A stretch of DNA of 64,000 nucleotides from assembly GCF_050320075.1 (NCBI RefSeq), contig NZ_CP190018.1. The stretch is one strand, 5' to 3'. Under the pieces are notes generated by a model that was not told the DNA's origin, did not search any database, and saw only the letters and a program-made list of their open reading frames with translations. Made by a program: the position numbers and the translations under genes. Each line of letters starts with the position of its first letter. The stretch's first letter is position 1. Shown piece by piece: positions 1 to 63,136 of the stretch. This stretch comes from Escherichia coli. Lineage in GTDB: Bacteria > Pseudomonadota > Gammaproteobacteria > Enterobacterales > Enterobacteriaceae.

Positions 1-575
1 GAATTGATTTTAGAACTCGCAGGATTCGCGCTATTACTGGCCTTGTGTGATGTTGTATTGTTCCCTTCGCCCGCTCCAGAATCTCCCCAGGTGGAGAAGA
101 CTAAAAAAGTCTTCTCTGTCAGCAACTTAAACAGTTACCTATTTAATTTGCTTAGGAGTTCTACCATTGTGATCCGCCCTTAGTAACTGTCACGTTAAGT
201 TACACGGTGAGATGACAGTATAACCTAACGTTGGCGGCAGTTGCACCTCTCACACCGCGATAGCACAACGTGAAGATAAAGCCCATCCTGGCATTGTAAT
301 GTCATCGACAGACTGAACACACGCATTTAAGCCCGATGTGCGGCCTTGTGGCTGCGTAAACAGGTTTATGGTGATATTGGTCCTTGCAAACCATATGCAA
401 GCTCTATCAGCGTTTCAGCCACGCTCCCAACGGGTACACGGTTATCCTGATAAGGTGTGATCTTTCTGACAATCTGATGAAGTCGCTACGCTCCCGCTTG
501 TTGCTGTATCACCAACGGGGCTTTATGGTTTCTATTGTCTATAATAATCTCACAATTCCCCTGCATGAGGTTGAT

Positions 576-782
576 ATGACTGTTAGCTACAAGATTACTT
601 ATGAGCATAGAGACGGTGATCAAATTAGAATGGAAGAGGTTTTATTCCATTCAGAGCATGAACCAACAAAAGATGAAATTCATGATGCAGTAAGAAAAGA
701 TACTGTGAGATTTAATTCTCCATCTAATGGAGTAACGGCTGTTTCAGGGTTTAAAGTGATTTCGGTTGTCCCTGTTCCATGA
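576..782 (+). CDS. hypothetical small protein (68 aa); short form of ORF 384..782
   Basis: GAGG Shine-Dalgarno 5 nt upstream of ATG at 576; the longer form starting at 384 has no ribosome-binding site. No recognisable family. Confidence 0.35.
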   Translation: MTVSYKITYEHRDGDQIRMEEVLFHSEHEPTKDEIHDAVRKDTVRFNSPSNGVTAVSGFKVISVVPVP

Positions 783-815
783 ATGGTTATAGAAGGGGCT
801 GGAAGCCCCTAATTA

Positions 816-1136
816 TTACTTCTTAATATCGCCAGTGCATTGATATTCGATAGTCACAAGTGTTTGCATACAACCAGATGAAGAAGGTTGTGAACATTGA
901 GAAGTGAATCCACCAAAAGGCTCGGCTCCTGAATATCCCCAAGCGGCACAACGCGCTTTGGCTGCATTCATGCCTTGTTGTGGATCTACAACAGGGCTTT
1001 CAAACATACCGTAAGAATAACTCATCCTAACTGTGCCGTCTGATTTGCTTCCACCAGTTGGAACGAGTTGTTTTTTTGTTGCACATCCAGAAATAATCAA
1101 TGTTGAAGCAAGTAACAGCATTAAACTTTTGCGCAT
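816..1136 (-). CDS. putative lipoprotein (106 aa)
   Basis: N-terminal signal peptide with lipobox-like LIISGC in MRKSLMLLLASTLIISGCATKK; convergent with 576..782. Confidence 0.6.
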   Translation of the reverse strand: MRKSLMLLLASTLIISGCATKKQLVPTGGSKSDGTVRMSYSYGMFESPVVDPQQGMNAAKARCAAWGYSGAEPFGGFTSQCSQPSSSGCMQTLVTIEYQCTGDIKK

Positions 1137-1788
1137 GTAAATAATCCCAAGAGATAATGGTTATGTATTGATTTAAAGCGTTTTTAGATTAATGCATTAA
1201 CTTAGCAAAATTAAGTCTTTTCTGATTGTTTGCAGAGTAAAAATGAGTTGCTTTCGAAATTATTTCGGATGTTTATTGTATTACGGTTTTTCAAACCGTC
1301 TAACTATTGTCGCTATTGAATGGGCAATAATAGCAAGAGGATTCATTTCGTCATTGGAGGCAACAAAAAGTCGGTAACTAATAGCCACAACGAATGCAGC
1401 AATAACGAGAAAGCGGATAGTGCTAAGATGTTTTGAAGATAAATGCATAACGCCCCCTAAATGAATGTGAGGGGGATTAAATCATGCAAATTTGTTATGT
1501 GCAATACTGGTAATTTATCCTAATAGTCTACTATTCACCTCAATCTACGTCAACCAATATTTGATGTAGATTTAATTTTCTTTTAAAAACAATATGTTGC
1601 AATTTGTTGGATTTTTGGGTTAGGTTGTTTTTTGAACGTTTCCATCAAGTGTAAAGATACGTTTAGCCTTCATAGTGAGTTCAGTTACTGTCTTTTTATC
1701 TGAAATCGGCGCAAACGTGATCATCGCTTAACGAGAAGATCAGCGCCGTCAGGTCCACGCGGCGACAACTCTGAAATATCAGGAGGCA

Positions 1789-2346
1789 TTACGCTTCCTG
1801 CTCTTTCTTGATACGTTGCACCGTCTGTGTGCTGACACTGAAATCTTTTGCTACGCTCCGAATTGATCCACCATTCGCGAGAGCGGCAGCAATTCCTGCT
1901 CGATCAATTGCTTTTCCATTACCACGTTTTGCTATACGTCCAGCGGCCTTAGCTGCGGCGATCCCTTCACGTTGACGCTCAAGCATCATTTCACGTTCCA
2001 TTTGTGCCACTGCTGCAAGCACTGTGAGCATCATATTCCCTGCGGGAGAGTTCTTCCCTGTCTTAAAGTCTTCTTTATGGAAATGCACAGACACGCCGCG
2101 CTCTGTTAATTGCTCAACCGTTGCCAGTAGGTCGGCTGTATTACGGCAAAGTCGATCAATGCTGTGAACATGCAAAACATCACCTTCCCGCACATAGTTC
2201 ATCATTGCCTCAAACTGTGGGCGCTGGGTATTTTTGCCTGACGCTTTATCTTCAAAGACTTTATCAAGAGTTACTCCAGCTAATTGACGGTCTGTGTTTT
2301 GTTGGACAGTCGATACCCTAATGTATCCAATATTAGCCATTTTCAT
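1789..2346 (-). CDS. serine recombinase (resolvase / DNA invertase family)
   Basis: N-terminal IGYIRVSTVQQ catalytic-serine motif, 185 aa, C-terminal helix-turn-helix-like tail; typical small serine recombinase architecture. Confidence 0.85.
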   Translation of the reverse strand: MKMANIGYIRVSTVQQNTDRQLAGVTLDKVFEDKASGKNTQRPQFEAMMNYVREGDVLHVHSIDRLCRNTADLLATVEQLTERGVSVHFHKEDFKTGKNSPAGNMMLTVLAAVAQMEREMMLERQREGIAAAKAAGRIAKRGNGKAIDRAGIAAALANGGSIRSVAKDFSVSTQTVQRIKKEQEA

Positions 2347-3265
2347 TTTCCTTCTGTGTTGATTTGTGTGTAGTGATTATTGATCGTGTTGATTAGGTGT
2401 GTAAAGGACTTTTTTCACTACGAAATTCGAAGGTTTTTAGTGTGGTGATTTAGCCTGCTTTATCACTACACGTCTTGCATGAGAATCATGTAGTTACATT
2501 TTGGTAAAATTAGCAAGCTATTAAATAGTGTGTTTATTTTGAAAAAATAATTTTTTGTTGCATTAAAGGAAACTTGTTCAATAAATGATAGAACGTTTAT
2601 TGAGCAACAATTTTGCAGTGATGCGCTATATGCCGCATTACATAAGGCTTTGCTGATGATAATGTAAAAGTGAAGAAAGCTAACATTGCTCTTTTAAGCT
2701 ACTTTTCATTGAATTTTTAGTATGGAATTACATAGGGATAAACTATGAATATTCTATGATTTACACGAGATATTCTTGCTGTTTAATTCCGGCTTTGGAG
2801 ATCAGGCATTCGCAAGAATACGCTAACGCGTTGCCTGAAAAGCCATTGCACATAATAGAGGTGAGCGTATAGCGAACTATCAATGTGATCATTGCACGAA
2901 TGATAATGAGTGGATATAGATTCTATATATCGTTAGATTGTAGTTTGATAGTTAATGTGTAATGTAGATTGTATGAGCGTATAGCGAATGTTAGTTAGAT
3001 CAACAACAAACTAACCTTTAAATCTCTTTTATCTTCTCATAGATATGGCTATGCGTAGCAACCGAAGGTTAGCCAATCATCTCTATGCAGCCGTAAGGCT
3101 GTTTTGCATGTAATAGTTGTTTGTTGTTGTTAGACAGTTACCAATTTATAGATCAGAGATAGATGTGAGCGTTGAGCGATACACTAATCATAACAACATC
3201 TTCTTACTTTTTAGTTAGTTGTTAGTAGGTTATTGTTATGCGCGCTATTAGCGCATGTATAAAGG

Positions 3266-3371
3266 TATCATTTTTATCTAAAGGGCTTTAGACATTTTTG
3301 ATACCTTTTTCATCTCTAAAAAAGTGTAATTTTTATCTAAAGGGGCTTTAGACATTTTTTACACCTTTTTC
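3266..3371. repeat. two direct copies of a ~45 bp repeat, each with palindromic core TCTAAAGG(G)CTTTAGA
   Basis: Copy 1 ~3266..3311 and copy 2 ~3327..3371 are near-identical; cores at 3277..3292 and 3337..3353; extra TCTAAAG half-sites near 3412 and 3487. Operator- or iteron-like. Confidence 0.6.
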
Positions 3372-3515
3372 TGTGCAAGACACTTACCAGTGTGCACAAT
3401 ACTTATGCTTTTCTAAAGCCGGGAATTTTTAAGTTTGATTGATCAATTGTTAACTTTAAAAGTTACTTTTAACAATCACTTAGACGATCTAAAGCCGCAA
3501 TTAACATAATATAAG

Positions 3516-3545
3516 TTGACATGCAAGCACTTTTTACCGTATAGT
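3516..3545 (+). promoter_or_regulatory. sigma70-like promoter candidate (TTGACA, 18 nt spacer, TATAGT)
   Basis: Perfect -35 hexamer at 3516..3521, -10 TATAGT at 3540..3545; transcription would start at the 23 bp tandem repeat. Confidence 0.4.
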
Positions 3546-3553
3546 GCGGGTTT

Positions 3554-3604
3554 CCTACCTACCCAGGAAATGAGTTCCTACCTACCCAGGAAATGAGTTC
3601 CTAC
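3554..3604. repeat. 23 bp tandem repeat CCTACCTACCCAGGAAATGAGTT, about 2.2 copies
   Basis: Exact copies at 3554..3576 and 3577..3599, partial third copy (CCTAC) following. Confidence 0.75.
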
Positions 3605-4556
3605 AATACTATAATTAAACTACAATTAAACTATCTTTTATAAATTCTTTTATCTTTTAAAGAATAATTATAGGGATACCCGTTAGGGAGTCTTCGACTA
3701 TCCCTTAATCTATTGGCATTCGCCAGAACCTTGCACAAGTTAGACTGATGCTTGTCATAACAGATAGTTTTTGTTTTTTGTTAGTAGTTAGCTGATCTAT
3801 GTTCGCTTTCCGCTCACAACGAATATGTAATCTACTATGTGCAAATAGCCTACGGCTTGCGTATGGCTAATAGTCTTGCGCTGTGCGCAGAACGATAATT
3901 AACTAACTACCATCTAACGATTGAAATTTACTTGTGCAATAACCTGAGCATAAGCGAATGGTTGTTAGTGTCTATGCGCTGTGCGCTTCAATAGTTCCAT
4001 TGATGAGGCTTACGCCAATCTAACGATCATCAATCTATTTAAGAGAAAATCTATTGTGCAATACTCTGACGAGTGCAATAACCTTGTGTGCTACGCGTTA
4101 GCGATGTTAGCACATAGACACAGACAACAACCAACAACAAACAAAAAAGAAAGAATGGTTTTAGTAGTTGAAGGTTAAATAAGTTTCTACCGCTTAAATC
4201 AAGCCGTAGGCGAGCTAAACGTATATAAGGTAGGGAAACACTTAGCGGTAATAGATTAGCTCGTTATAGAGCTTCTGAGGAGCTTTACAGGTATTTTATA
4301 AGATGTCTGAAATCAGAGTTTATCTATCCACCATCTTTCCATCATCTGATAAATCAAAAATAAGCCCCTTAAATAAGCCTCTGACGAGATAAACAACCTC
4401 TACATAAGGGAATGTATTGTTTTTATCAAAACCCCCGTCAGAGTGCGATTGAGAGCGTTTTAGACAACAGGGAAGAATTGTACCAGAGTAGGCAGCACAA
4501 AAAGCTAAGAAAAATTATAAGAAATTGAAAATGATCAAGTTTTTTATAAAAGAGGG

Positions 4557-4585
4557 TTGACAAAGCCGCCGTTATGTAGTATTGT
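4557..4585 (+). promoter_or_regulatory. sigma70-like promoter candidate (TTGACA, 17 nt spacer, TATTGT) for the plus-strand operon
   Basis: -35 at 4557..4562, -10 at 4580..4585; first ORF of a co-directional gene string starts ~115 nt downstream. Confidence 0.5.
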
Positions 4586-4701
4586 AAGTAGGGAGGGGAG
4601 AAACATCTCTCTCCATCTAAATAATCAAATCACAGAACACTGCACTTTGAGCCGTCAGGCTGCAAGGTGTGTTTTTCTTTTATCTAAATAAGGAGTTTTT
4701 T

Positions 4702-4884
4702 ATGAAATGGTATACACCGGAACACGTCGTAGAGGCATTTAAAAAAGGTGAGCTAACACGACATCAAGTAAGGATGAACAGGAACACAGCGCGGCGCTGT
4801 GGTTATCCAGAGCGTGAAAAATGCTTTGACGATGCACTAAAAATTATTGATGAACTGCGTAAGGCAGAAGCAGAGAAAGAATAA
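4702..4884 (+). CDS. hypothetical small protein (60 aa)
   Basis: AGGAG 6 nt upstream of ATG 4702 (MKWYTPEHV...); first gene after promoter 4557. Confidence 0.5.
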   Translation: MKWYTPEHVVEAFKKGELTRHQVRMNRNTARRCGYPEREKCFDDALKIIDELRKAEAEKE

Positions 4885-4907
4885 TAACAGGAGAAGGAGA
4901 AAACCAA

Positions 4908-5084
4908 ATGAATATTAATTTTGATTCTGCAACTTATAACGCGTTGTTAAATCGTGCAAAGGCAGAAGGGAAATCAATTCCAAAACTTGTTAATGAATTA
5001 CTAATTACAGTCCTTACAAAGGAGGAACTAAATGAACCAAAACACCAAAACAATTGCCGAAGCAAAAGCGCAATGCCTCAATAA
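4908..5084 (+). CDS. ribbon-helix-helix-like small DNA-binding protein (58 aa), not in ORF track
   Basis: GGAGAAGGAGA before ATG 4908; MNINFDSATYNALLNRAKAEGKSIPKLVNELL resembles CopG/Arc-type RHH N-terminus; 3-prime end overlaps the next gene by 53 nt in another frame. Confidence 0.45.
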   Translation: MNINFDSATYNALLNRAKAEGKSIPKLVNELLITVLTKEELNEPKHQNNCRSKSAMPQ

Positions 5085-5697
5085 GAAAGATAGTAAACAA
5101 ACATATGTAGTAGTTGAACAATGGCTGAAGATGTTTAAAAAGTGGTTCTCACCGTCAGGTAAGGAATACACCGCGACACTTCCAGCCGTTGAAATCTACA
5201 GTTACGTAGCTGGGTTCAATGAACAAGGGCAAGAATGTTACGCCAATCAAAAAACATTAGCTAATATTGGAATGGTTAGTGATCGTCAGGTGCGTAATAT
5301 TATAAATATGTTTATTGATATGGGTGTTCTTTCTGTAGAGGCACGGGACGGGCAAACATCACTCTATAAAGCATTACCCTTTACAGATGCACACATCACA
5401 CCACCGGAAGACGTAAAAACCTCTGTAAACGTAGAACAGCCTGCACCTGAAACACAGGAACCGTTAGAAGCGACACACTCTATTGAGCAGGAAACACAGG
5501 CAGAAATCACGGAACAATCTGATCTTTTTACATGGCTTATTTCCATAGACAGCCAAAAGCCTATGCAAGAAGAAACAGAAAATTTTATAAAACGTGCACT
5601 GACCTCGAAGAGGATAATTCTTGAAGATGATGCTTTTAATGCACTGATGATAGCCCTGAGAAAAGAAAGTGAAATCTATGACTCAATACCATTTTAA
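5032..5697 (+). CDS. hypothetical protein with winged-helix-like N-terminus and acidic C-terminus; possible replication initiator or organiser
   Basis: Strong AAGGAGGA before ATG 5032; segment ANQKTLANIGMVSDRQVRNIINMFIDMGVLS resembles winged-helix DNA-binding domains of phage/plasmid Rep-type proteins. Assignment is by resemblance only. Confidence 0.45.
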   Translation: MNQNTKTIAEAKAQCLNKKDSKQTYVVVEQWLKMFKKWFSPSGKEYTATLPAVEIYSYVAGFNEQGQECYANQKTLANIGMVSDRQVRNIINMFIDMGVLSVEARDGQTSLYKALPFTDAHITPPEDVKTSVNVEQPAPETQEPLEATHSIEQETQAEITEQSDLFTWLISIDSQKPMQEETENFIKRALTSKRIILEDDAFNALMIALRKESEIYDSIPF

Positions 5698-5709
5698 GGA
5701 GAATAAAAA

Positions 5710-5967
5710 ATGAAATACAACCTGACATTAAACAAACGAACATTCGAAATTACAGAAAGCGGCTACACACTGGCAAAACAGCTTGCTGATAGCAATTATG
5801 AGCTACCCGCGATTATCAGCTTTCAGGAGTTACCTCATAGTAAAGAACACACACAGCACTGGTTAAATCACCTGAGCCATTTTGGGGTAATTAAGTATGA
5901 GGCTGTGAATAGTCAGACGTTCCGTTTGCTTGAGATAAGCCCTTTCGAATTGTGGGTGGCGCTGTGA
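5710..5967 (+). CDS. hypothetical protein (85 aa)
   Basis: ORF track; GGAG upstream; co-directional operon member. Confidence 0.5.
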   Translation: MKYNLTLNKRTFEITESGYTLAKQLADSNYELPAIISFQELPHSKEHTQHWLNHLSHFGVIKYEAVNSQTFRLLEISPFELWVAL

Positions 5968-6170
5968 CCATATTCGATAGCGAATTTTCACAAGAAACCT
6001 TTCTGCAATATTTACGGGAAAGAACGGGAATGATTCTGTTTGATTCTGAGTTTTCCGGTGTGGTAGGTGAGCAATTTTTATATGCTCTTCTCGATAGCCT
6101 AAGTAAACAAGGATTATTGCAGTATACCAAAACTCATATGAAAGCATTCAGAATCGACTCTGTAGCTTAA
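5952..6170 (+). CDS. hypothetical protein (72 aa, GTG start) with internal FDSEFS...FL.Y.L duplication
   Basis: ORF track; start codon is GTG overlapping the upstream stop; internal ~45 nt direct repeat at DNA level. Confidence 0.3.
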   Translation: MGGAVTIFDSEFSQETFLQYLRERTGMILFDSEFSGVVGEQFLYALLDSLSKQGLLQYTKTHMKAFRIDSVA

Positions 6171-6206
6171 AACAAACAACTATCAAACATCTTGAAGGGT
6201 GAAACA

Positions 6207-6347
6207 ATGGAAAGCTTAATATTTTTCTTAGTATTTATGATCGCTTCCTTTTTTAACACTGCAACAAGAAAAACAAAACGAAGGGGAAGCAATGAGCAAG
6301 AAAAAAGGCAAGAAAAACGTAATAACAACTATTGGCGAAGCATGTGA
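6207..6347 (+). CDS. candidate small single-pass membrane peptide (46 aa), not in ORF track
   Basis: ATG 6207 after AAGGG; MESLIFFLVFMIASFF hydrophobic helix then a basic tail (RKTKRRGS...); overlaps the start of ORF 6292 in another frame, so only one of the two may be real. Confidence 0.25.
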   Translation: MESLIFFLVFMIASFFNTATRKTKRRGSNEQEKRQEKRNNNYWRSM

Positions 6348-6672
6348 TCAGTATGCGTTAAACAATCCTCGCAAATATAATTATGAGCATGATGCACAAC
6401 CAGGCGAGGAATTGATCTTTATACTTGAAGAACCAAGCCCAGAATTAACAGACGAAGAATTATCACTCATTCAAAGTATGGACGGTGTTTACTTTAATCC
6501 GCGCCCACGCAAAACAACGGTTATAGATTCCAGTCTTCTGAAAAGATGGCAGTGTTTGGGTTTTCAGGATATGCACCACTTTAGGGGGTATATGGCTCTT
6601 AACAGTCTGCAATATGCAGGGGTGAGAGAAACCGAATTACTTCTGCTTGATAAAATAAAAATCGACGATTAA
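6292..6672 (+). CDS. hypothetical protein (126 aa)
   Basis: ORF track; AAGGGGA 5 nt upstream of ATG. Confidence 0.5.
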   Translation: MSKKKGKKNVITTIGEACDQYALNNPRKYNYEHDAQPGEELIFILEEPSPELTDEELSLIQSMDGVYFNPRPRKTTVIDSSLLKRWQCLGFQDMHHFRGYMALNSLQYAGVRETELLLLDKIKIDD

Positions 6673-6713
6673 CAGCGTTTGCTGAATATAACCCTTAACA
6701 AAAGGAAAATAAA

Positions 6714-6935
6714 ATGATTAACAAAGCAATTTTAGAGACAACCACTTTTCACGATCTTAAACTTCTTTCTGAATGCTTCATAAGCCTGATTGAACGTGCA
6801 CAGGAAGAAAACGATCTCGGTTTACTCGATGATATTATAGACAACATTGCAACTTATAAAATCCCGCTCACTATTGCTATGAAGAAAGCTCGTGAAGCAC
6901 AACAACAATTAGAACAATCAGAGGAAGTGGCATAA
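6714..6935 (+). CDS. hypothetical protein (73 aa)
   Basis: ORF track; AAGGAAA before ATG; co-directional. Confidence 0.45.
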   Translation: MINKAILETTTFHDLKLLSECFISLIERAQEENDLGLLDDIIDNIATYKIPLTIAMKKAREAQQQLEQSEEVA

Positions 6936-7243
6936 TGAGCGAAGTACACAACGTAACTATTGAAATGATGGATCTGGTTATTGATTTACAGAAAGCAGTA
7001 AACGCGGCTCTGACTTTTCCAAGCGAGCTAACCATCACACAGGCGGTTATTAATCTGGAATCGACGCGGGAAGCACTGCAACTACTTATTGCAGCGTGCG
7101 AAGAGAGCGAAGGTGCACAGATTGAAGCTGATGACCTTTCTAATCTGATCATCGTCATTCATGACACCACTGAAATCATGAAAGAAGCGGTAGCAGATCT
7201 GCAACCCCTCATTAATGAATTAATCGATAAGGCTAACAACTAA
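6935..7243 (+). CDS. hypothetical acidic protein (102 aa)
   Basis: ORF track; start overlaps upstream stop (ATAATG), suggesting translational coupling. Confidence 0.5.
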   Translation: MSEVHNVTIEMMDLVIDLQKAVNAALTFPSELTITQAVINLESTREALQLLIAACEESEGAQIEADDLSNLIIVIHDTTEIMKEAVADLQPLINELIDKANN

Positions 7244-7452
7244 TGTCAAAAACTAAACGTGTGCGCCTTCTGGCGCTCACAGAAGAAGGGAAAGCGGGTA
7301 ATTGTTTCACAGTAGGTAAAGTGTATACCGGCTTACTCGACACTTACACCCGCCTGATGCACGTAACCGATGATAACGGTAACGATCAAACAATCGTTTT
7401 AGATGGTAATTGCGTATTTGGTGAGTGGGAACTGACAACCGAAAAAAGTTGA
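7243..7452 (+). CDS. hypothetical protein (69 aa)
   Basis: ORF track; start overlaps upstream stop (TAATG). Confidence 0.5.
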   Translation: MSKTKRVRLLALTEEGKAGNCFTVGKVYTGLLDTYTRLMHVTDDNGNDQTIVLDGNCVFGEWELTTEKS

Positions 7453-7471
7453 AAATAATTGCATTTACCTA

Positions 7472-7500
7472 TTGACTTTTACTAACAGAAATGTTAGAAT
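7472..7500 (+). promoter_or_regulatory. near-consensus sigma70 promoter (TTGACT, 17 nt spacer, TAGAAT)
   Basis: -35 at 7472..7477, -10 at 7495..7500; followed by ~820 nt without any ORF of 60 codons or more on the plus strand. Confidence 0.55.
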
Positions 7501-7506
7501 AATAAA

Positions 7507-8291
7507 TGTTGGGTTTGGAATCGAAAATAGGTGTTAGCTGGCGTTAATCCTTCTCCCGATTCTAATCCTACACGAAAGCGGGGTAGACCTCAAGGGGTCG
7601 CGCCCTATCTAACCTATCCCGCTTTCCCTTTACAGTGATTTTTTAGAAATTGTTTCCCTCGTTAATAGTTTCATTTTATTTTCCTTATTGCTTTATCAAA
7701 ATTGTGTCTTAAGAATGCAGGGGCTACGGATTTGGCCCCTCATCTTTTTAACCAACTGCGAAGCATGAAACACTTTCTAAAAACACTGTTTACAGTGTCT
7801 ATAAACCCCGTATAAACAAATAACGGTGTATATCTGTTTCTTGACAACAGTTTTCTACTAAGCTTAAAGCTGAATATGTTTTTGTTTGTTGGTGTTTATT
7901 AAGGTGCCAATCTTAGAACGCGAAAGCGTGGATGATCCCCGAAATCATCTCGGCACCGCCTCCTATTAAAATGAGAATCCAAAAGGTTTGAAAGTTAATA
8001 GGTGATTCCTGAAAGTCTGATCGATGCATCCACATTGTGAAAGACAGCGATTAGCCGTCGCACGAATAACAGGTTTATAGATTCCTCTCCAAAGGGGGCG
8101 ACCTCCTAAGCGCCTACTCCCTGTAAGCCTGTTATTCACCCCTCAAGGGTATATAACAATAAGCAATCTTATTCTTATATGTCCTCCTCTTTAAGTTCAT
8201 ATAAACTGCGATTTAGTAACACTCTATAACATCCTTCAAATGTTGTATTCATAAAGCCGGAAGCTTTCCCCTTCCGGTTTTATTTTTATCA
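7507..8291 (+). ncRNA. candidate structured leader or noncoding RNA region
   Basis: ORF-poor; stem-loops at 7575..7626 (GAAAGCGGG / CCCGCTTTC), 7719..7749 (AGGGGC, 10 nt loop, GCCCCT then T-run) and 8065..8136 (AATAACAGG / CCTGTTATT); ends at terminator 8257..8291. Boundaries and function are inferred. Confidence 0.3.
8257..8291 (+). terminator. rho-independent terminator-like hairpin (CCGGAAG, loop, CTTCCGG, then T-run)
   Basis: Inverted repeat with following TTTTATTTTTAT, just upstream of the 8331 ORF. Confidence 0.5.
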
Positions 8292-8330
8292 GCACTAAAC
8301 AAGACTGTTAGGAATAAAGGTAAAGCAATA

Positions 8331-8546
8331 ATGCAAAATCTCATTCTAAAGAATGGTAACGAAGAATTGGTTATCACTGATGAAACATTCAATGCTACGG
8401 CTTATATGCTGGGGATCACTCCCACAGAATTGAAAAAACATTGTGATAAGCTTTTTAAGTCTGCTGATGAACAGAAACCTACTATGCAGGATCTGATTAA
8501 AGCAAAAGCAGAACAAATCAAACAATCCAAAAAAGGAAACTATTAA
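8331..8546 (+). CDS. hypothetical protein (71 aa)
   Basis: ORF track; immediately precedes the capsid-like gene pair. Confidence 0.5.
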   Translation: MQNLILKNGNEELVITDETFNATAYMLGITPTELKKHCDKLFKSADEQKPTMQDLIKAKAEQIKQSKKGNY

Positions 8547-8548
8547 TT

Positions 8549-8920
8549 ATGGCTATTATTAATATGAGCGATCTGTTTCCAGTTCGCAAATCATTTACCG
8601 ATATCGTTTCATATGCAACTGATGAGTTCGGTTGTGTGCAATCTTTTACCGTTGATCTGGCGGTTGATGTTGAATGCGGCGATCTGATTACCAGTGACGG
8701 CGCTGAATATGTAAGCGGCGGCGATGTTCTTGTAGTTGTGTCTGATGCGGTATCCGCTGGCGACGCTAAAACCGTTAACGTGCTGCGTAGCAATGCCGGA
8801 CTGGTTTGCATCAAGTCCGATGCTCTGAATGTTGAAGGCGCTGTGAAAGAAGCTGCTATTGCTGCCCTGGCTGCAAAAGGTTTCCAGATGGCTGGTTTTA
8901 ACACTGTATTCACATCTTAA
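8549..8920 (+). CDS. putative virion structural protein (123 aa), possibly head-decoration-like
   Basis: Small Gly/Ala/Val-rich protein directly upstream of and coupled to the 342 aa gene; codon usage is strongly biased toward highly-expressed E. coli codons. Resemblance to a lambda D-type decoration protein is by size and arrangement only. Confidence 0.4.
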   Translation: MAIINMSDLFPVRKSFTDIVSYATDEFGCVQSFTVDLAVDVECGDLITSDGAEYVSGGDVLVVVSDAVSAGDAKTVNVLRSNAGLVCIKSDALNVEGAVKEAAIAALAAKGFQMAGFNTVFTS

Positions 8921-8938
8921 TATAAAGGAATAAAAATA

Positions 8939-9967
8939 ATGATTATTGGTAATGAATCCGTCGATCTGGCTCCGCTGTTTAGTCTGCACGACTCTCGCAA
9001 CTTCCTGTTAACTTCTCTCGACTTTACTGATCCGGTAGGTGTGAGTTCTCATAAAGTGGCTGTTAGCCAACTGGTGGAAACTAACGAATCTCTGTTCAAC
9101 AAAGAAACCTCTCGTTTCTCTTCTGAACATAACGTGACTAAACGTGAACAGGGTAAAGAATTTTTAGTAGAGATCCCCTACTTCCTGCGTGAAGATATGA
9201 TTAAGCCGCAAGACGTGCAAGGCAAACGTAAACCAGGCGCTACCGTTGAAGAAACTCTGACAGATATCTACGCGGAATATGTTGCTAAGCACCACATTGC
9301 TTTCCAGCGTACTAAAGAAAGCGTGCTGGCTGCTTCCCTGTTCTCTGGTCGCACTTACACCCCTAAAACTGATGATGTGCTGATCCAGTGGGGCGATCTG
9401 TTTAGTGTTGTTCCGATGACTGCAACCATCGACGCATCAAGCACCACGCCTTCTATGGTGTTCCAGCAATTCGATCAGATGCATACAGACGTTATTACTA
9501 AAGCACAAAGCCAGGCGGCTGCTGTAGAACGTATCGTTGTATTCTGTAAACCTGCTGCTTTCAACGCTATCCGTTACAGTGCTGGCATGGTTAACGCGTT
9601 CCAGTATGCAAGCCCTACCGATGACGCAAACATCGTTTATAGCGTGCGCTCCCTGCTGCCAGGTGTGACTACCTTCACTATTCCTGGGACTAACATCGAT
9701 ATCGTTAAAGTTACTGATCCGCTGCTGCTGGCTCATATGACTTCTGATGCGGTTGCTGTTCCGAAGTTCGCTAAAGGCTCTAACGTCTATCAGAACATTT
9801 TCAGCGCTCCTTCTTCAACGTTCGACCTGCTGAATTCTGGCGCGGCTGAATATTACAGCTATGCGTTTAGCCCAGCACGTAACGACGCTGTAAACGTAGT
9901 TACTGAGAATAGCCAGATGGTTGTAAACCACGGCGTAGGCTTCACTGTACAGATCACAGTAGCGTAA
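8939..9967 (+). CDS. putative major capsid-like protein (342 aa)
   Basis: Size and position (after a ~120 aa protein) resemble a lambda D/E-type head gene pair; AAGGAA RBS; codons strongly optimised (CGT, CTG, TCT, AAC, GAA) unlike neighbouring genes. Not confirmed by homology. Confidence 0.45.
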   Translation: MIIGNESVDLAPLFSLHDSRNFLLTSLDFTDPVGVSSHKVAVSQLVETNESLFNKETSRFSSEHNVTKREQGKEFLVEIPYFLREDMIKPQDVQGKRKPGATVEETLTDIYAEYVAKHHIAFQRTKESVLAASLFSGRTYTPKTDDVLIQWGDLFSVVPMTATIDASSTTPSMVFQQFDQMHTDVITKAQSQAAAVERIVVFCKPAAFNAIRYSAGMVNAFQYASPTDDANIVYSVRSLLPGVTTFTIPGTNIDIVKVTDPLLLAHMTSDAVAVPKFAKGSNVYQNIFSAPSSTFDLLNSGAAEYYSYAFSPARNDAVNVVTENSQMVVNHGVGFTVQITVA

Positions 9968-10120
9968 TAAAGCGTTAATAGTCGTTTCCTGTGCGACTGG
10001 AAATAAAACAGGCAATAAGGGCAAAAGGGATTATTAAACCTGTAGCGCAAATACAGTAAACAATCTCTTTTGCCCTTTTTTCGTTTATACCGTCTATTAA
10101 AATATTGTGAGAGAAAAATC

Positions 10121-10312
10121 ATGAGCGAACAAAACAACAATCCAGTTGAGATCCTGAAAGCTGTTTCCACCTTACCGGAAGATATTCTGAATATCTCTCA
10201 AGTGTGTAAGTTTTTAGGGATCTCTAATACTGCTGTACGTCAAAGAATCTTCACTACTGGCTGCTCAGCTATGGAAGCAGTGCAATACTACGTAACAAAA
10301 CAAAACAAATAA
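10121..10312 (+). CDS. hypothetical small protein (63 aa), possible HTH
   Basis: Internal ATG of ORF 10070..10312 (MSEQNNNPVEIL...); segment ISQVCKFLGISNTAVRQRI is helix-turn-helix-like. Confidence 0.35.
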   Translation: MSEQNNNPVEILKAVSTLPEDILNISQVCKFLGISNTAVRQRIFTTGCSAMEAVQYYVTKQNK

Positions 10313-10330
10313 AAGGTAAAGGAAAATATT

Positions 10331-12172
10331 ATGGATTTAAACATCTCAACCTTAACAAACAAGGTTGTATTTAAAGTTGATTTTGCATCATTACAGAAAG
10401 CAAGGGACGCAGGGAAGAAATTTCAGAAAGAAATGGAAAACCTAACCAATCCAACATTGAAAGGGAAGAAGGCTAAACGAGCTATAGACGAGGCTCATGA
10501 TCTGGTAAAGGCTCGTAAAGCTGCACAGGCTAAAACTGATGCCAAAGCGTCAGACAAGCAAGCTCAAACCGATAAGAAGAACGCTGATAAGGTGGCAAAG
10601 GCAGAAGCTAAAGCGAAGGCTAAAGCCGCTATAGCTGCCGATAAACAGATCCGCGCTAAAGCGACAATAGCAGAGAAAGCAGAGATTAAGCGCCAGCAAG
10701 CTTTCAGACAGCTTGAAGGGATTAAGAAAGGGCGTATGGGCGACGGTATGGACTCCGCCCAATACTACAAAACGTTGCAATACATCAAAGCACAAACGGC
10801 AGCGTATGAGAAAGGCGCTATTAGTCAGGCTAAGATGAATCACCTGATCCGTGATCGTATCACGTTAGAACGCCGTGCGGCTGCTGTAAAAGCTCGCCAG
10901 GTGGCGGCTGATGGCGGTAAATATCCACATATGGCTAAACAGCTTAAAGGCGGTCATATAGGCGGTGGTGTAGGTGCAATGGTGGGCGGTGCCGCTCTCA
11001 CTGCTGCCACTCTCGGCGGTGCTGCGATATTCAATACCGTAACCGATCAGGCAAGCAAGATCACAGACACTAACCGCAAGGCAAAGGCTGTCAACGTAAA
11101 CACTAACGCCCTGTTAGCACTTAATCAGTACGGCTTAGAACACGGTGTCGATAGTTCCGTAGACCAACGTCAAGACAACCTTAAAGACGTTCAAGAGCGT
11201 TTAGGTGAATCCGTAGGGAATACCAAATGGGACGCTAAGAAAGGTCGCTGGGCTGGCGGTAATGGTGCCGTCGATAACATCCTTAATAAATATGGTTGGA
11301 GTCCTGAACAGATTAAAGGTTTCCAGACTGATCCATTAGGTTTCCTGGGCGCTGTAGTGAAAGAAGGAGAACGCCGTGGACTCTCTGATCAGGAGCAGGG
11401 TCACATCCTTGAAGACCTTGGAAATGATTTACAATATTTCCGTGGTGCTTTCAGTCGTAACGGTGAAGAGCTAAATAAAACCATCGTTAAGATGCAAAAA
11501 GCCAATGCCACCTATGCGCAAGCGGATCTTGACGCTGCTGAACGTCTGCAAGCTGTACAGGCTAATATGAATATGGCCTGGGAAGGTAGTAAGAAAGCTA
11601 TCATGACGGGATTCGGTGAAGAGTTCGACGCTCAGGCTGGTGAAGAGTGGGCGCAAATGTTGAAAGATCTCAATCCTCTGTTTAAAGAACTTGGAAGCTC
11701 AACGGCTGAAATGATGAGCGCCTTTGCTGGTGCTGTATCGTGGCTTACTGCTGCATACCAGAATATAAATCCAGAGAACAAACATGAAAACCTTGATTCG
11801 TCCGGTATGTATTATAAGGATTCGTTTGTAGGCGGCATGGTTGATTGGGGTCGTAGTGCTTTAGGCTTATCGCCTATCCCTGGCACGGAAGACAAGCCAA
11901 CGACTGGCGGAACTGCAATTCAGAACTATTCAAGCCCGTCCGATAACGTGCAATCCCTGAAAGAGAACGTTAGCCGTGATCTGAACACTACCCCATCTAT
12001 GACGTATGCGCCAAGCATTGTCGTAAACGTGCCAGAAAGTAAGGTTGATGTGAATATCGCTCCTGATGGTAGTCAGCTTGGATCATACCTCGATTACAAA
12101 GTGGGAAGTATCCAACAAGATTTTGAACGTAGTTTCACGTTGGCGGCTCTGTCTGGGCAAGCACCAAGTTAA
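10331..12172 (+). CDS. large coiled-coil / glycine-zipper protein (613 aa); tape-measure-, scaffold- or DNA-pilot-like
   Basis: Lys/Ala-rich coiled-coil stretch (KAKAKAAIAADKQIRAKATIAEKAEIKRQQ), then glycine-zipper hydrophobic segment GGHIGGGVGAMVGGAALTAATLGGAAIF. Function inferred from composition only. Confidence 0.5.
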   Translation: MDLNISTLTNKVVFKVDFASLQKARDAGKKFQKEMENLTNPTLKGKKAKRAIDEAHDLVKARKAAQAKTDAKASDKQAQTDKKNADKVAKAEAKAKAKAAIAADKQIRAKATIAEKAEIKRQQAFRQLEGIKKGRMGDGMDSAQYYKTLQYIKAQTAAYEKGAISQAKMNHLIRDRITLERRAAAVKARQVAADGGKYPHMAKQLKGGHIGGGVGAMVGGAALTAATLGGAAIFNTVTDQASKITDTNRKAKAVNVNTNALLALNQYGLEHGVDSSVDQRQDNLKDVQERLGESVGNTKWDAKKGRWAGGNGAVDNILNKYGWSPEQIKGFQTDPLGFLGAVVKEGERRGLSDQEQGHILEDLGNDLQYFRGAFSRNGEELNKTIVKMQKANATYAQADLDAAERLQAVQANMNMAWEGSKKAIMTGFGEEFDAQAGEEWAQMLKDLNPLFKELGSSTAEMMSAFAGAVSWLTAAYQNINPENKHENLDSSGMYYKDSFVGGMVDWGRSALGLSPIPGTEDKPTTGGTAIQNYSSPSDNVQSLKENVSRDLNTTPSMTYAPSIVVNVPESKVDVNIAPDGSQLGSYLDYKVGSIQQDFERSFTLAALSGQAPS

Positions 12173-12228
12173 TGATAAAGAGAATGTTTAATCACCATTT
12201 AAAACACTCTTATAAGGAATTAAGCATA

Positions 12229-12259
12229 TAAGAGGCTCCCATTACAAGGAAGCCTCTTT
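12229..12259. terminator. bidirectional terminator-like hairpin between convergent 613 aa gene and integrase
   Basis: Inverted repeat AGAGGCT(CC) ... (GGA)AGCCTCT flanked by A/T-rich runs. Confidence 0.4.
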
Positions 12260-12279
12260 ATTGCGCCTATGGCGTTGTT

Positions 12280-13441
12280 TTAAGCCTTAAAATCAATATT
12301 TAATTCATATCTTACTAATTCTACATATTCAGCTAATTCTGGAATGCTTGCCCCTTGTGAGTAGGTGCGAAAGGCTTCTGTTTTAGCTCTCTGCTCTGTA
12401 TGTCCGGTAATGGCACCGATCCGCTGTTCAGGCACTCCGGCACGATCAAGACAAGTGATAAACATCCCGCGCAAGCTGTGAAAGCATTGTCTATTTGTAG
12501 CGATTGGCAAGACGCTACGACGTAAACGTGAGAACGCTTGAGAATAGAACGGGCCTTTCTTACCGTCGATTCTTTTTACTTTGTTCGAGTGAGGGAACAA
12601 ATATTCACCATAATTATGATTTAAATATTCATCGACAATAATCGATAGTCTCGAATGTATCGGAACGTGCCTGATCCCTGCTTTAGTCTTACTTTTGCTG
12701 ATATAAAAACAGCGTATTCCTTCCACAGTTACAACCTCTGACTTTTTCAGACTTGCCAGTTCGTCTAATCTGCATCCTGAAAACAAGCCCATTAAAATAA
12801 TATTTCTGATCTCCGGCTCCGCTGCATCAAGTAGCTTTTGCATTTGTTCAGGTGTAAACGGTTGATAACTCTCGATTGTGCGACGTGCTTCGAGATTATG
12901 ACCGTGAAAAGGGTTACTGTCTGGTATTCCGTCATAACGGCGTTTAGCAAATTCATAGAGCGATCCTAAGCATGTAAGCCAGTTTTGACGAGATTGATCG
13001 GCTGCTCCTCGTTGCTTCTGGTCATCTAAGAATACTGTTACAAGCCGTCTGCCTATTTTCTCAATATGAATATCATCTTTCTGAATGCTTTGTAAAAATA
13101 GCTCAACGGCCCTTGCTGATTTCTGTAGTGTTGAGTATGAACGACGCTCTCTGTAGCATTCGGCGTATTCGTCACGTATTAAGCATAGGGAAGGCGATGC
13201 ATAACCGCGTTTTACGGCTCTTTGCGTGTTTTTATTGGCCCTTGCCTCTGAATGTAAGGATTCAATAGCTTGTTGTAACCTCCTTTCGGGGTTATCAGGA
13301 TTATGTTTCCGCTTTAGTTCCTCCCATTCTAATAATAGATGGTTTCTGAATCTTCTCGCCTCATTCAGATCTCGTGTAGATGTGCTTTTTCTCCACAACT
13401 TGTAAGGGTAAAGATGACGTAAGTATTTAGGAACAAAAATC
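12280..13441 (-). pseudogene. tyrosine recombinase / integrase with 5-prime end disrupted by IS1
   Basis: C-terminal catalytic motifs of tyrosine recombinases (R in GCRLDEL, HSLRGMF, GHTEQ...FRTYSQG). The ORF's first 5 codons (to 13455) lie inside the IS1 inverted repeat, so the native start and promoter are missing. Confidence 0.8.
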
Positions 13442-13496
13442 GGTGATGCTGCCAACTTACTGATTTAGTGTATGATGGTGTTTTTGAGGTGCTCCA

Positions 13497-13772
13497 GTGG
13501 CTTCTGTTTCTATCAGCTGTCCCTCCTGTTCAGCTACTGACGGGGTGGTGCGTAACGGCAAAAGCACCGCCGGACATCAGCGCTATCTCTGCTCTCACTG
13601 CCGTAAAACATGGCAACTGCAGTTCACTTACACCGCTTCTCAACCCGGTACGCACCAGAAAATCATTGATATGGCCATGAATGGCGTTGGATGCCGGGCA
13701 ACCGCCCGCATTATGGGCGTTGGCCTCAACACGATTTTCCGCCATTTAAAAAACTCAGGCCGCAGTCGGTAA
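13497..13772 (+). CDS. insA: IS1 InsA
   Basis: 91 aa product matches remembered IS1 InsA ([32 protein letters not shown]...). Confidence 0.95.
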
Positions 13773-14194
13773 CCTCGCGCATACAGCCGGGCAGTGACGT
13801 CATCGTCTGCGCGGAAATGGACGAACAGTGGGGATACGTCGGGGCTAAATCGCGCCAGCGCTGGCTGTTTTACGCGTATGACAGGCTCCGGAAGACGGTT
13901 GTTGCGCACGTATTCGGTGAACGCACTATGGCGACGCTGGGGCGTCTTATGAGCCTGCTGTCACCCTTTGACGTGGTGATATGGATGACGGATGGCTGGC
14001 CGCTGTATGAATCCCGCCTGAAGGGAAAGCTGCACGTAATCAGCAAGCGATATACGCAGCGAATTGAGCGGCATAACCTGAATCTGAGGCAGCACCTGGC
14101 ACGGCTGGGACGGAAGTCGCTGTCGTTCTCAAAATCGGTGGAGCTGCATGACAAAGTCATCGGGCATTATCTGAACATAAAACACTATCAATAA
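13691..14194 (+). CDS. insB: IS1 InsB reading frame (expressed as InsAB by frameshift)
   Basis: 167 aa ORF overlapping insA in the -1 frame, typical IS1 organisation. Confidence 0.9.
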
Positions 14195-14478
14195 GTTGGA
14201 GTCATTACCCTTTGGCTATGAATAATTCTGATTTGACGAATCCAGAGGACTTATAGATCACTGTCTCCGGTTTAATAACTTGAATATAATCTAATTCTAA
14301 TATTTTAAACGCCTAATGATTTTTCAACACGGGTGTTATTCTGCTTACGCAAAAATTTTATTTTTAATTATATTTCATTATTATTTCATCAATGTATTCT
14401 TTGGATTTTGCTTATAATAATAATGGAAGGGATGATTATAAATGAATGCGTTATTGCATTTACACTCAGGATGAATAT

Positions 14479-62840: not shown

Positions 62841-62917
<77 letters not shown>

Positions 62918-62949
62918 TCACCGTACTGCTTTATTTCATCAAATTTGAT

Positions 62950-63026
<77 letters not shown>

Positions 63027-63059
63027 TCACCGTACTGCTTTACTTCATCAAATTTTAAT

Positions 63060-63136
<77 letters not shown>

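Follow-up and report, generated by a model that had tools for sequence, protein, structure and literature searches.

A swappable ribbon-helix-helix and winged-helix gene module in a candidate phage satellite of Escherichia coli

The window analysed here, a 64,000-nucleotide stretch of Escherichia coli DNA (contig NZ_CP190018.1), contains a 58-codon open reading frame that runs into the start of a longer gene. The locus raises two questions: whether the small frame is a gene at all, and what the two genes do together. The first-pass annotation of this DNA had proposed an unannotated gene with its own Shine-Dalgarno sequence and a ribbon-helix-helix (RHH)-like N terminus, overlapping in another frame the first 53 nt of a winged-helix, Rep-like gene. 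The elements concerned are as follows.

4890..4899, plus strand: Shine-Dalgarno sequence of the RHH gene, GGAGAAGGAG, read from the sequence, 8 nt before the ATG
4908..5084, plus strand: RHH gene, type A, 58 codons; functional core codons 1-42 (4908-5033), tail codons 43-58, without constraint
5020..5025, plus strand: Shine-Dalgarno sequence of the winged-helix gene, AGGAGG, read from the sequence, inside RHH codons 38-40
5032..5084, plus strand: overlap of the two genes, 53 nt, with the winged-helix gene in the +1 frame
5032..5697, plus strand: winged-helix initiator-like gene, 221 amino acids, start ATG at 5032

The RHH frame opens with an ATG at 4908 and closes with a TAA at 5082-5084, exactly where the first-pass annotation had placed it, and a GGAG-type site before the ATG is kept in all homologues, the phage copy included. 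The frame is left unannotated by NCBI PGAP in an identical RefSeq chromosome and was overlooked by gene callers in the related loci L014 and L015. It is intact in 100% of the related loci fetched, which come from E. coli, Enterobacter, Erwinia and two lytic phages. Between the window and the Enterobacter locus L004, codons 1-42 show 32 differences, 21 of them synonymous and 11 non-synonymous (pS 0.75, pN 0.11, pN/pS 0.15; binomial P = 1.8e-7), and the remaining two frames of the same region give pN/pS values above 1. Judged from this comparison, codons 1-42 are under strong purifying selection. Because that selection is frame-specific and the open frame is intact in all homologues, ORF 4908-5084 is, on the evidence of sequence comparison, a genuine and usually unannotated gene, as had been proposed. 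Residues K38-E39-E40 and N42 show little or no variation among the type-A RHH homologues. In L012, L014 and L015 the overall identity of the protein is 93% and 88%, with codons 1-42 identical in L014.

The first-pass annotation had named conservation of both frames as one check, and synonymous-site variation confined to one selected frame as the result that would count against it. The outcome differs along the gene: the RHH frame is conserved and selected over codons 1-42, and within the overlap only the winged-helix frame is. Between the window and L014, the overlap gives pN/pS of ∼1.4 in the RHH frame (Sd 1/7.3, Nd 8/40.7) and 0.25 in the winged-helix frame (Sd 5/10.2, Nd 5/40.8). The RHH stop shifts position among loci, giving proteins of 58, 61 or 62 amino acids, and type B and C modules have a gap of 54-101 nt in place of the overlap. 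Since only the downstream frame is constrained within 5032-5084, the 16-codon RHH tail is, on these counts, incidental read-through. No sign of a function for the overlap was found in these comparisons; it is a by-product of the joining point of the module. With the Shine-Dalgarno sequence of the next gene placed in RHH codons 38-40, it may at most have a coupling or interfering effect on translation. Masking of a ribosome-binding site was considered and is unsupported, the mRNA structure around either site being no better than that of shuffled sequence.

An AF2 model of the RHH protein has a strand at residues 2-5 and helices at 7-20 and 24-40 (pLDDT 83-88), a strand-helix-helix topology within ∼45 residues. 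A G-x-S/T/N turn between the two helices is the defining mark of the RHH superfamily. Here it reads G21-K22-S23, and no type-A homologue departs from G21 or S23. When modelled as a dimer, with the help of an artificial linker and from an alignment only 8 sequences deep, the protein forms an intertwined pair with a two-stranded antiparallel ribbon that superposes on TraY, Arc and CopG-type RHH proteins. Phage P22 Arc and Mnt and F-plasmid TraY are the closest structural matches to this dimer, although their sequence similarity is not significant and their genetic context is different. No curated RHH family was matched significantly, the best Pfam hit being FitA-like_RHH (E 0.19, 12 bits against a cut-off of 27), and a PDB profile search with the RHH sequence returned nothing. 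A homologue at 44% identity reached Pfam RHH_4 with E 2e-3, below the cut-off. At other loci the same slot before the winged-helix gene is filled by an RHH gene of type B or C; the type-A and type-B proteins match in register in a profile comparison, and type B matches the PHROG Arc-like repressor family (E 2e-3). The models indicate that the conserved 42-residue core folds as an RHH dimer and is a small sequence-specific DNA-binding protein, in keeping with the RHH-like N terminus originally noticed.

The 221-residue product of the downstream gene consists of a winged-helix DNA-binding domain (residues 33-120; 5128-5391), a disordered acidic linker (residues 130-160) and a helical C-terminal domain (residues 162-218). 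Against Pfam HTH_36 the window protein scores 22.3 bits, below the cut-off of 25; a type-B allele (30.1) and a phage relative (55.9) score above it. PHROG families of initiators and replisome organisers match the protein with E values of 7e-6 to 4e-3, and its BFVD neighbours, where named, are replication proteins. The description of this gene as winged-helix and Rep-like is borne out by these relatives. The proteins of the element that were scanned gave no match to a helicase or primase family. The protein ends in a further element.

5677..5694, plus strand: C-terminal tip YDSIPF, resembling the C-terminal tip of SSB

The SSB C-terminal motif is DDDIPF (PMC5872125). An acidic-[IL]PF end is found in 50 of 181 members of the winged-helix family (for example EDDFDIPF and EWDDIPF), and among 311 control ORFs it was seen only in this family and in a neighbouring SSB. 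As in SSB, an acidic residue followed by I/L-P-F stands at the extreme C terminus and ends a flexible acidic segment; whereas SSB is an OB-fold single-strand binder, the bearer here is a winged-helix protein predicted to bind double-stranded DNA sequence-specifically, and the partners of the tip are likewise predicted. An SSB tip on a sequence-specific initiator suggests a simple way of bringing host replication proteins to an origin, of which the literature searched holds no example.

The two genes are exchanged together between loci.

4880..5390, plus strand: swappable module comprising the RHH gene and the winged-helix DNA-binding domain (types A, B and C)

This is the only segment that separates type-A from type-B loci, with identities of 0.9-1.0 within types and 0.2-0.5 between them. 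The k-mers present in all type-A loci and in no type-B or type-C locus fall at 4917-5378, apart from one 13-nt run at 10595-10607 in the tape-measure gene. By this comparison, the RHH gene and the winged-helix DNA-binding domain swap as a single module. Matches to 4400-6400 of the window occur in ∼9% of complete E. coli genomes (506/5426). A species-level genome scan gave only three additional loci, so the family is narrow.

Upstream of the module lies a candidate origin.

3552..3604, plus strand: candidate type-A iterons, 2.3 tandem copies of the 23-mer TTCCTACCTACCCAGGAAATGAG, the unit being an inverted repeat TTCCT...AGGAA
3605..3672, strand not assigned: AT-rich stretch, candidate DNA-unwinding element of the origin, directly 3' of the iterons, 84-88% A+T

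TRF reports the repeat at 3552-3604 with a period of 23 and 100% matches. Of all 60-mers in the 2400-4700 spacer, the one richest in A+T falls in 3605-3672 (the element overall is 59% A+T), and a homologous AT-rich stretch (ACAATA...) follows the array in every type. All 11 loci whose winged-helix domain is of type A or A-like have type-A iterons, among them Erwinia, where the arms are altered to TTGCC/GGCAA. The type-A iterons are absent from type C, from two of the four type-B loci and from those Enterobacter loci that combine a type-A RHH gene with a B-like winged helix and B-like iterons; the other two type-B loci retain the type-A array as well. The exact type-B array was found in only two type-B loci; relaxed matching finds it in all four, and its interpretation as a plain insertion was dropped. 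The array thus follows the winged-helix type and not the RHH type, a co-variation that covers perhaps 5-8 independent lineages drawn from E. coli, Erwinia and Enterobacter. Because the type of the DNA-binding domain tracks a 22-23-nt iteron array beside the most AT-rich stretch of the spacer, we infer that the 221-residue protein is the initiator of a tRNA-integrated, satellite-like island of ∼12 kb. This agrees with the initiator role suggested at first; binding of the array, whose sequence varies with the domain type, is predicted. The layout resembles that of lambda O-type and plasmid iteron initiators, in which, too, a winged helix at the N terminus is joined by a flexible linker to a C-terminal part for recruitment, and whose tandem iterons also adjoin AT-rich DNA; the protein has weak PHROG 'O-like' matches. 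Unlike the lambda O type, the iterons here lie 1.3 kb upstream and not within the gene (a search inside the module gave none convincing), no helicase loader partner is encoded, and recruitment is proposed to proceed through the SSB-like tip and not through a P-type loader.

The module is transcribed as part of an operon.

4557..4585, plus strand: sigma-70-like promoter of the operon, TTGACA, 17-nt spacer, TATTGT; 10/12 matches in a consensus scan
4591..4684, plus strand: leader before the first gene, with a 5' hairpin and an intrinsic-terminator-like hairpin with T-run
4702..4884, plus strand: first gene of the operon, 60 amino acids, annotated by PGAP

The promoter TTGACA is conserved in all E. 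coli loci. The leader RNA folds with -31.4 kcal/mol (z -2.9), and in L014 its terminator stem is preserved despite changes on both arms; an Rfam search of 1-14000 found nothing. The 60-residue first protein is 73-100% conserved in all E. coli loci and has no family match in Pfam or PHROG profile searches. The RHH gene lies directly upstream of the winged-helix gene in the same operon, the two overlapping with no terminator between them, and this order, which the first-pass annotation had read as a regulator-then-initiator pair, is kept in every close lineage examined.

A similar order is known from CopG-RepB of pMV158 and ORF56-ORF904 of Sulfolobus pRN1, in which an RHH copy-control protein is co-transcribed with the initiator and, as here, an RHH-fold core of ∼45 residues (modelled in our case) is encoded directly upstream of a DNA-binding initiator. 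The present initiator differs in being of the winged-helix iteron type and not a rolling-circle nuclease or primase-polymerase, and the element is an integrated satellite-like island and not a plasmid. The RHH protein might on this precedent be a CopG-style autorepressor that binds a palindrome at the operon promoter or upstream and sets the level of the initiator, a reading that we consider unlikely. In contrast to the plasmid pairs, no operator was found at the promoter by co-variation, an indirect test: promoter and leader are common to loci with unrelated RHH types, differ among loci with the same RHH and so assort independently of RHH type. Sliding-window co-variation in both directions along the operon likewise revealed no operator, and the only type-A-specific k-mers beyond the module are those of the 13-nt run in the tape-measure gene. 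The upstream palindromic repeats on which the RHH protein had been suggested to act (3258-3371) were rejected as partner sites; they lie in a lineage-specific segment of ∼800 nt that is missing from L012, L014 and L015, all with type-A RHH genes. That suggestion is thus unsupported, the RHH type tracking neither palindromes nor promoter nor iterons. An antitoxin-like or partition protein (ParG or omega type) is a very improbable identity for the RHH protein: one source calls a homologue a 'plasmid stability protein' and there are weak Pfam matches to FitA-like, ParG and HicB RHH families, but in no locus is a toxin or ParA-type ATPase gene adjacent, and the C-terminal tail, the would-be toxin-binding part, is the portion without constraint. 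We give hardly any credence to a chance open frame or to a programmed frameshift that yields one RHH-winged-helix protein. The database protein P0009 does run from the RHH into the winged-helix frame, but it comes from a single short assembly, a lone 925-nt contig, and changes frame twice, and a fusion based on it was rejected. The frame-specific selection on codons 1-42 also argues against this reading, as do the strong independent Shine-Dalgarno sequence of ATG 5032, the absence of a slippery site from the overlap and the separate, gapped genes of types B and C.

For the downstream protein, we doubt that it is a transcription factor, acting for example on late genes of a helper phage or of the satellite, with the tandem 23-mers serving as operators or as RNA. 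Its top PDB matches are winged-helix transcription regulators, a fold that is generic by itself, and a strong promoter-like site (3516-3545) closely precedes the 23-mers. Each iteron unit is a small hairpin, and in Erwinia both arms have changed in concert, a pattern also compatible with RNA. On the other side, the named relatives of the protein are replication proteins, repeats with a 22-23-nt period next to the most AT-rich DNA are arranged as in an origin, and the SSB-like tip would have no obvious role in a transcription factor.

The island of which the putative initiator forms part is ∼12 kb long, encodes an integrase and is found at glyU or thrW. Its virion-type genes recognised so far are those for capsid and tape measure, with a Dit-like gene in other copies. 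The capsid and tape-measure genes are nearest to Stephanstirmvirinae, the tape-measure gene at 30% identity (E 1e-42) and the capsid gene at 24-26% identity over its full length. Terminase, portal and tail-sheath families are absent from the Pfam domains recorded, several small proteins having no family match. An integrative island with a partial set of virion genes is what is expected of a phage satellite, and we infer that this one is an undescribed satellite with lytic Stephanstirmvirinae as its predicted helpers. The literature searched describes no satellite of these phages and no new satellite families with capsid and tape-measure genes. A distant 13.2-kb relative is a circular episome without a typed replicon, the one indirect hint at replication from an origin.

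Within the first 14 kb of the window, IS1 aside, only the RHH gene and the DNA-binding domain match phages at the nucleotide level, and all of these phages belong to Justusliebigvirus. They carry near-identical RHH copies of types A and C. PaulScherrer has the type-A RHH gene followed by the first 10 codons of the winged-helix gene, and over 242 nt the muut_153 region shares 96.7% identity with the type-C RHH gene, intergenic DNA and type-C winged-helix start of the island. That the genes probably moved from island to phage is read only from these vestigial gene starts retained in the phages. Justusliebigvirus also has the type-A DNA-binding domain joined to an endonuclease: the phage gene muut_154 encodes a protein with two HTH_36 domains and an endonuclease domain (phrog_681 endonuclease, E 2e-18; Pfam MUG113, 22.5 bits against a cut-off of 22.3; T5orf172, E 0.03). 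It is 75% identical in amino acids to residues 30-143 of the window protein, and its binding-domain segment is 91% identical in nucleotides to the window and 97.3% to L010.

A precedent for such a protein is ICP1 Odn (Gp88), in which a lytic phage has the origin-binding domain of a satellite fused to a nuclease (PMC8263062). In muut_154, too, the DNA-binding domain of an initiator is fused to a T5orf172/GIY-YIG-type nuclease domain, and cutting is predicted. As in the PLE satellites with their RepA and origin (PMC8263062), initiator and origin are exchanged together, as one module, among satellite variants, and the island lacks helicase and polymerase. The differences are that the fold is an HTH_36 winged helix and not RepA_N, that the phage protein has two winged helices, that phage and island domains are far more alike (91-97% in nucleotides versus 42% in amino acids), and that the RHH gene travels with the module and has itself been captured by phages. 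Unlike PLE, the island has capsid and tape-measure genes of its own.

The explanation that we favour, with moderate confidence, is that the locus encodes the RHH regulator and winged-helix initiator of a satellite-like island and that helper-type phages have copied both. The winged-helix protein would initiate replication of a tRNA-integrated satellite of lytic Stephanstirmvirinae, its N-terminal domain binding the iterons at 3552-3604 beside the AT-rich unwinding stretch. The SSB-like tip (...DSIPF), on its flexible acidic linker, would recruit host proteins that dock on SSB (PriA, DnaG or the chi subunit of polymerase III) to an island that itself encodes neither helicase nor primase. The RHH protein would be the regulator of the module, most likely a repressor limiting or timing initiator expression or satellite activation. 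Helper-type phages would have copied the RHH gene twice and fused the type-A DNA-binding domain to a GIY-YIG-type endonuclease, both captures serving as counter-measures in which the RHH copy silences the satellite and the nuclease fusion cuts its origin.

A missed RHH gene alone is a routine annotation gap, and pipelines often skip this frame. Here it marks a small swappable cassette on which a common E. coli island would depend for the specificity of its replication. More tentatively, and a little short of an even chance in our judgment, the module of iterons, RHH gene and SSB-mimic-tailed initiator may be the replication and specificity cassette of an undescribed satellite family of E. coli and other Enterobacterales that parasitises the ∼150-kb Stephanstirmvirinae, the phages retaliating by repeated RHH theft and by nuclease fusion. 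The presumed helpers, lytic phages of the phi92/phAPEC8 type, are relevant to therapy, and the near-identical phage copies lead to predictions as to which phages help the island, that muut_154 is an origin-directed nuclease and that the phage-borne RHH protein silences the island. If true, coliphages and their satellites would have arrived independently at an arms race like that of PLE and ICP1 Odn, with an initiator that recruits the host replisome through mimicry of the SSB tail.

The first-pass annotation had described an unannotated gene for a ribbon-helix-helix (RHH)-like protein overlapping the start of a Rep-like gene. The ORF lies exactly where it had been placed, with its own Shine-Dalgarno sequence, 58 codons, and a 53-nt overlap in another frame.

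Layout of the two overlapping genes in the window
4890-4899, Shine-Dalgarno sequence of the RHH ORF, GGAGAAGGAG
4908-5084, RHH ORF as read from the sequence, ATG at 4908, TAA at 5082-5084
5032-5697, winged-helix gene, ATG at 5032, 221 codons, preceded by AGGAGG at 5020-5025
Overlap, 53 nt, winged-helix gene in the +1 frame relative to the RHH ORF

Several RefSeq genomes are 100% identical to the window, which is E. coli chromosome, and 506 of 5426 complete genomes match its operon stretch (4400-6400) when matches of any kind are counted. The ORF is indeed unannotated: PGAP skips it in an identical RefSeq copy while annotating the flanking genes, and other gene callers missed it in two further island loci (L014 and L015). 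An intact RHH frame was present in all related loci fetched, comprising many E. coli islands, Enterobacter, Erwinia, and two lytic phages.

Residues 1-42 of the RHH protein are nearly invariant among homologues, and the tail beyond N42 varies in sequence and length (50-62 aa). Against the Enterobacter copy, 21 of 32 differences in codons 1-42 are synonymous (pS 0.75, pN 0.11, ratio 0.15; binomial probability of the synonymous excess 1.8e-7), and the other two frames of the same stretch have ratios >1. Inside the overlap the pattern is reversed. Between two E. coli haplotypes the winged-helix frame has a ratio of 0.25 (Sd 5/10.2, Nd 5/40.8) versus ∼1.4 for the RHH frame (Sd 1/7.3, Nd 8/40.7), in which the stop codon shifts. 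This frame-specific selection, reversed inside the overlap, shows that both are real genes and that the overlapped RHH tail is unconstrained read-through. Conservation of both frames, put forward as a check on the first-pass annotation, therefore holds for the two genes but not within their overlap, where only the winged-helix frame is constrained. The conserved RHH residues K38-E39-E40-L41-N42 coincide with the Shine-Dalgarno sequence and ATG of the winged-helix gene. The overlap itself is not conserved: where the RHH is of another type, a gap of 54-101 nt lies between the genes.

Sequence searches alone gave no convincing ribbon-helix-helix assignment. The RHH protein matched FitA-like_RHH in Pfam with E 0.19 and had no match in NCBIfam or in a PDB profile search; a 44%-identical Enterobacter homologue gave weak matches to RHH_4, FitA, NikA, ParG, and HicB (E 2e-3 to 0.1). 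RHH types A and B aligned in register in a profile comparison (probability 78%, E 2e-5). A predicted structure, modeled as a dimer with an artificial linker and from a shallow alignment, showed the small protein with an RHH fold.

The E. coli copies fall into three module types, of which the window holds type A. In type B the RHH is Arc-like and 56 aa long and the winged helix differs; type C was observed in a copy carried by an IncF plasmid. In sliding-window and k-mer comparisons, type-A and type-B loci were separated only by ∼4880-5390, that is, the RHH gene and the DNA-binding domain. Promoter and leader assort without regard to module type, as do the remainder of the operon (to ∼8630) and the C-terminal half of the winged-helix protein. 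At the level of sequence, these comparisons show the RHH and the DNA-binding domain swapping as a module.

Every locus carries a tandem array ∼1.2-1.4 kb upstream, with 2-5 units of 22-23 nt, each a small inverted repeat, followed by a conserved ACAATA... motif and then AT-rich DNA. The unit sequence varies with winged-helix type, a linkage that we regard as established.

Array units by type
Type A, TTCCTACCTACCCAGGAAATGAG, window 3552-3604, in 11 of 11 A or A-like loci (arms changed to TTGCC/GGCAA in the Erwinia type-A-like unit)
Type B, GATGACCGGGGGGGTCGGTCAC, in 4 of 4 B loci
Type C, GTAACGATNNGTTAC
Enterobacter, TCAGGCACTATACCTGA plus a G-run

The array tracks the winged helix and not the RHH, because in the Enterobacter loci L004 and L022 the RHH is A-type whereas winged helix and array are both B-like. 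Directly after the window array lies the most AT-rich 60-mer of the spacer (88% A+T). An origin is classically laid out with iterons adjoining an unwinding element, and this arrangement, together with the other evidence, makes initiator the best reading of the winged-helix protein. Two type-B loci also retain a type-A array and the independent lineages are few, so this reading stands as a strong lead and not as proof.

The AF2 model of the winged-helix protein has a confident winged helix (aa 33-120), which establishes the fold, followed by an acidic disordered linker (aa 130-160), a helical C-domain (aa 162-218), and a free tail. Its family is a small one: 417 representatives (E <1e-3) were counted among 1.84 billion proteins. 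Strikingly many of them have I/L-P-F after an acidic residue at the C terminus (DSIPF, DDFDIPF, EWDDIPF, SDDIPFF), the same motif as in the C-terminal tip of SSB, DDDIPF (PMC5872125). The SSB-like tip is likewise clear: 311 ORFs from across the loci served as controls, and it occurred only in the winged-helix family and in the SSB of a neighboring P4-like element.

The first-pass annotation had further suggested that the RHH protein might act on upstream palindromes. A near-perfect palindrome of ∼48 nt occurs at 3258-3371 in two copies 59-60 nt apart (AAAGGTATCATTTTTATCTAAAG / CTTTAGACATTTTTGATACCTTT). Among the related loci, the ∼800-nt segment that holds them (∼2750-3549) is common only to the lineage of the window and L013, another island locus. 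The segment is missing from other type-A loci, which rules out the palindromes as a necessary RHH partner. No candidate RHH operator was found. The earlier interpretation was partly right, and the observation behind it was confirmed.

The ∼2.3 kb at 2347-4700, between recombinase and operon, has no credible ORF, is mosaic among loci, and is rich in hairpins and short repeats (a TGTGCAA-type motif occurs ∼5 times in 3730-4120). A strong promoter-like site at 3516-3545 (TTGACA, 18-nt spacer, TATAGT) points at the iteron array. This spacer, which had no match in Rfam, may hold non-coding RNAs or packaging sites besides the proposed origin. The operon leader (4591-4684) has a 5' hairpin and then a terminator-like hairpin with a T-run ahead of the first gene (z -2.9), its stem preserved through paired changes in other loci, suggesting that expression needs read-through or antitermination, with a phage perhaps as the trigger. 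A second non-coding gap within the operon (7452-8331, ∼880 nt) divides the early small genes from the capsid block and contains promoter-like sites (7432-7459, 7472-7500) and terminator-like hairpins (7719-7740, 8251-8283).

From left to right, the ∼12-kb island comprises a small recombinase, ∼2.3 kb of non-coding DNA, the operon, capsid, tape measure, in some copies a Dit-like gene, and a DUF6538-type tyrosine integrase. It is inserted at glyU or thrW.

Phage-related genes of the island
8939-9967, capsid gene, Phage_cap_E type
10331-12172, tape-measure gene, 613 aa, phrog_16051, E 2e-64

The nearest phage relatives of these two proteins are in Phapecoctavirus and Justusliebigvirus, ∼150-kb lytic myoviruses; the tape measure is 30% identical (E 1e-42) and the capsid 24-26% along its full length. 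The Pfam domains on record for the island include no terminase, portal, sheath, or lysis gene, and several small proteins have no family match. A 123-aa protein is encoded just 5' of the capsid gene (block 8549-12172), and some island copies, although not the window, have a Dit-like gene (e.g. L014 15968-16624); all four proteins are distant relatives of Stephanstirmvirinae genes. Capsid alleles of 342 aa with a Pfam match and 343 aa without one assort independently of module type. The island is a putative satellite of Phapecoctavirus/Justusliebigvirus phages.

The left-end slot encodes a serine recombinase (Resolvase family, 183-185 aa) or a tyrosine recombinase (192-205 aa), as compared at window 1789-2346 (-), L013 5757-6335, and L004 4782-5399. 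Both are invertase-sized and adjoin the repeat-rich spacer; a DNA inversion switch there is possible. An IS1 copy (13435-14200) abuts the integrase end, and toward the other end of the window there are three tRNA-Met genes in tandem (62841-63136). In NZ_CP123240, the region immediately preceding the window (L003 1-15600) places the island in tandem with a P4-like element (Icd-like, DUF927 primase, an SSB of its own that ends ...DGIPF) and with three large genes for hypothetical proteins, so that one tRNA site holds a stack of satellite-like elements. A distant relative, the 13,238-bp circular E. coli "plasmid" L023 (CP148565.1), encodes a winged-helix homologue besides its capsid, baseplate, and tape-measure proteins but lacks a typed replicon, an annotated integrase, and an RHH. 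A separate 48-aa acidic ORF in it (8895-9041) ends ...ENDSDIPY, as though the SSB-like tip had moved to a small protein by itself.

In a set of 50,697 phage records, only Justusliebigvirus matched the module, in nucleotides or protein, and near-identical copies are clear there. PaulScherrer and VEcB carry a type-A RHH (95-96% nt identity) whose three substitutions relative to the window in codons 1-42 are all synonymous, and the copied piece extends into the winged-helix gene, its first 10 codons remaining as a vestige. Phages muut, inny, Mt1B1_P17, and BI-EHEC have two genes in the slot that holds the RHH in PaulScherrer, their flanks sharing 98% identity with that phage. This variable slot spans L001 3015-3200 in PaulScherrer (type-A RHH) and L002 2411-3628 in muut (type-C RHH and a chimeric double winged-helix endonuclease). 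The gene muut_153 lies within a 242-nt stretch, 96.7% identical to the island, that runs from the type-C RHH through intergenic DNA into the beginning of the type-C winged-helix gene. The protein muut_154 has two HTH_36 domains, the second 91% identical in nucleotides to the window and 97.3% to island L010, and has an endonuclease domain of MUG113/T5orf172 type at its C terminus (phrog_681, E 2e-18); a variant of this nuclease, P0039, has a different first winged helix. The vestigial gene starts suggest that genes passed from island to phage, and the capture of two different RHH types suggests that the RHH matters in phage-satellite conflict. The architecture of muut_154 mirrors that of ICP1 Odn, a T5orf172 nuclease whose DNA-binding domain is borrowed from the initiator of the PLE satellite and which cuts the PLE origin (PMC8263062).

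We propose that the winged-helix protein would bind the iterons and initiate replication of the excised island through recruitment of SSB-client proteins. The RHH would regulate the module or satellite activation in the manner of a repressor, its target being the weakest link in the scheme, and the phage copies would be counter-measures. The literature searched held no description of satellites of these phages or of new capsid and tape-measure satellite families. The RHH gene in isolation is a new member of a known fold; taken as a system, it adds a further variation on the theme of satellite initiator against phage nuclease, within a coliphage satellite that is probably undescribed.
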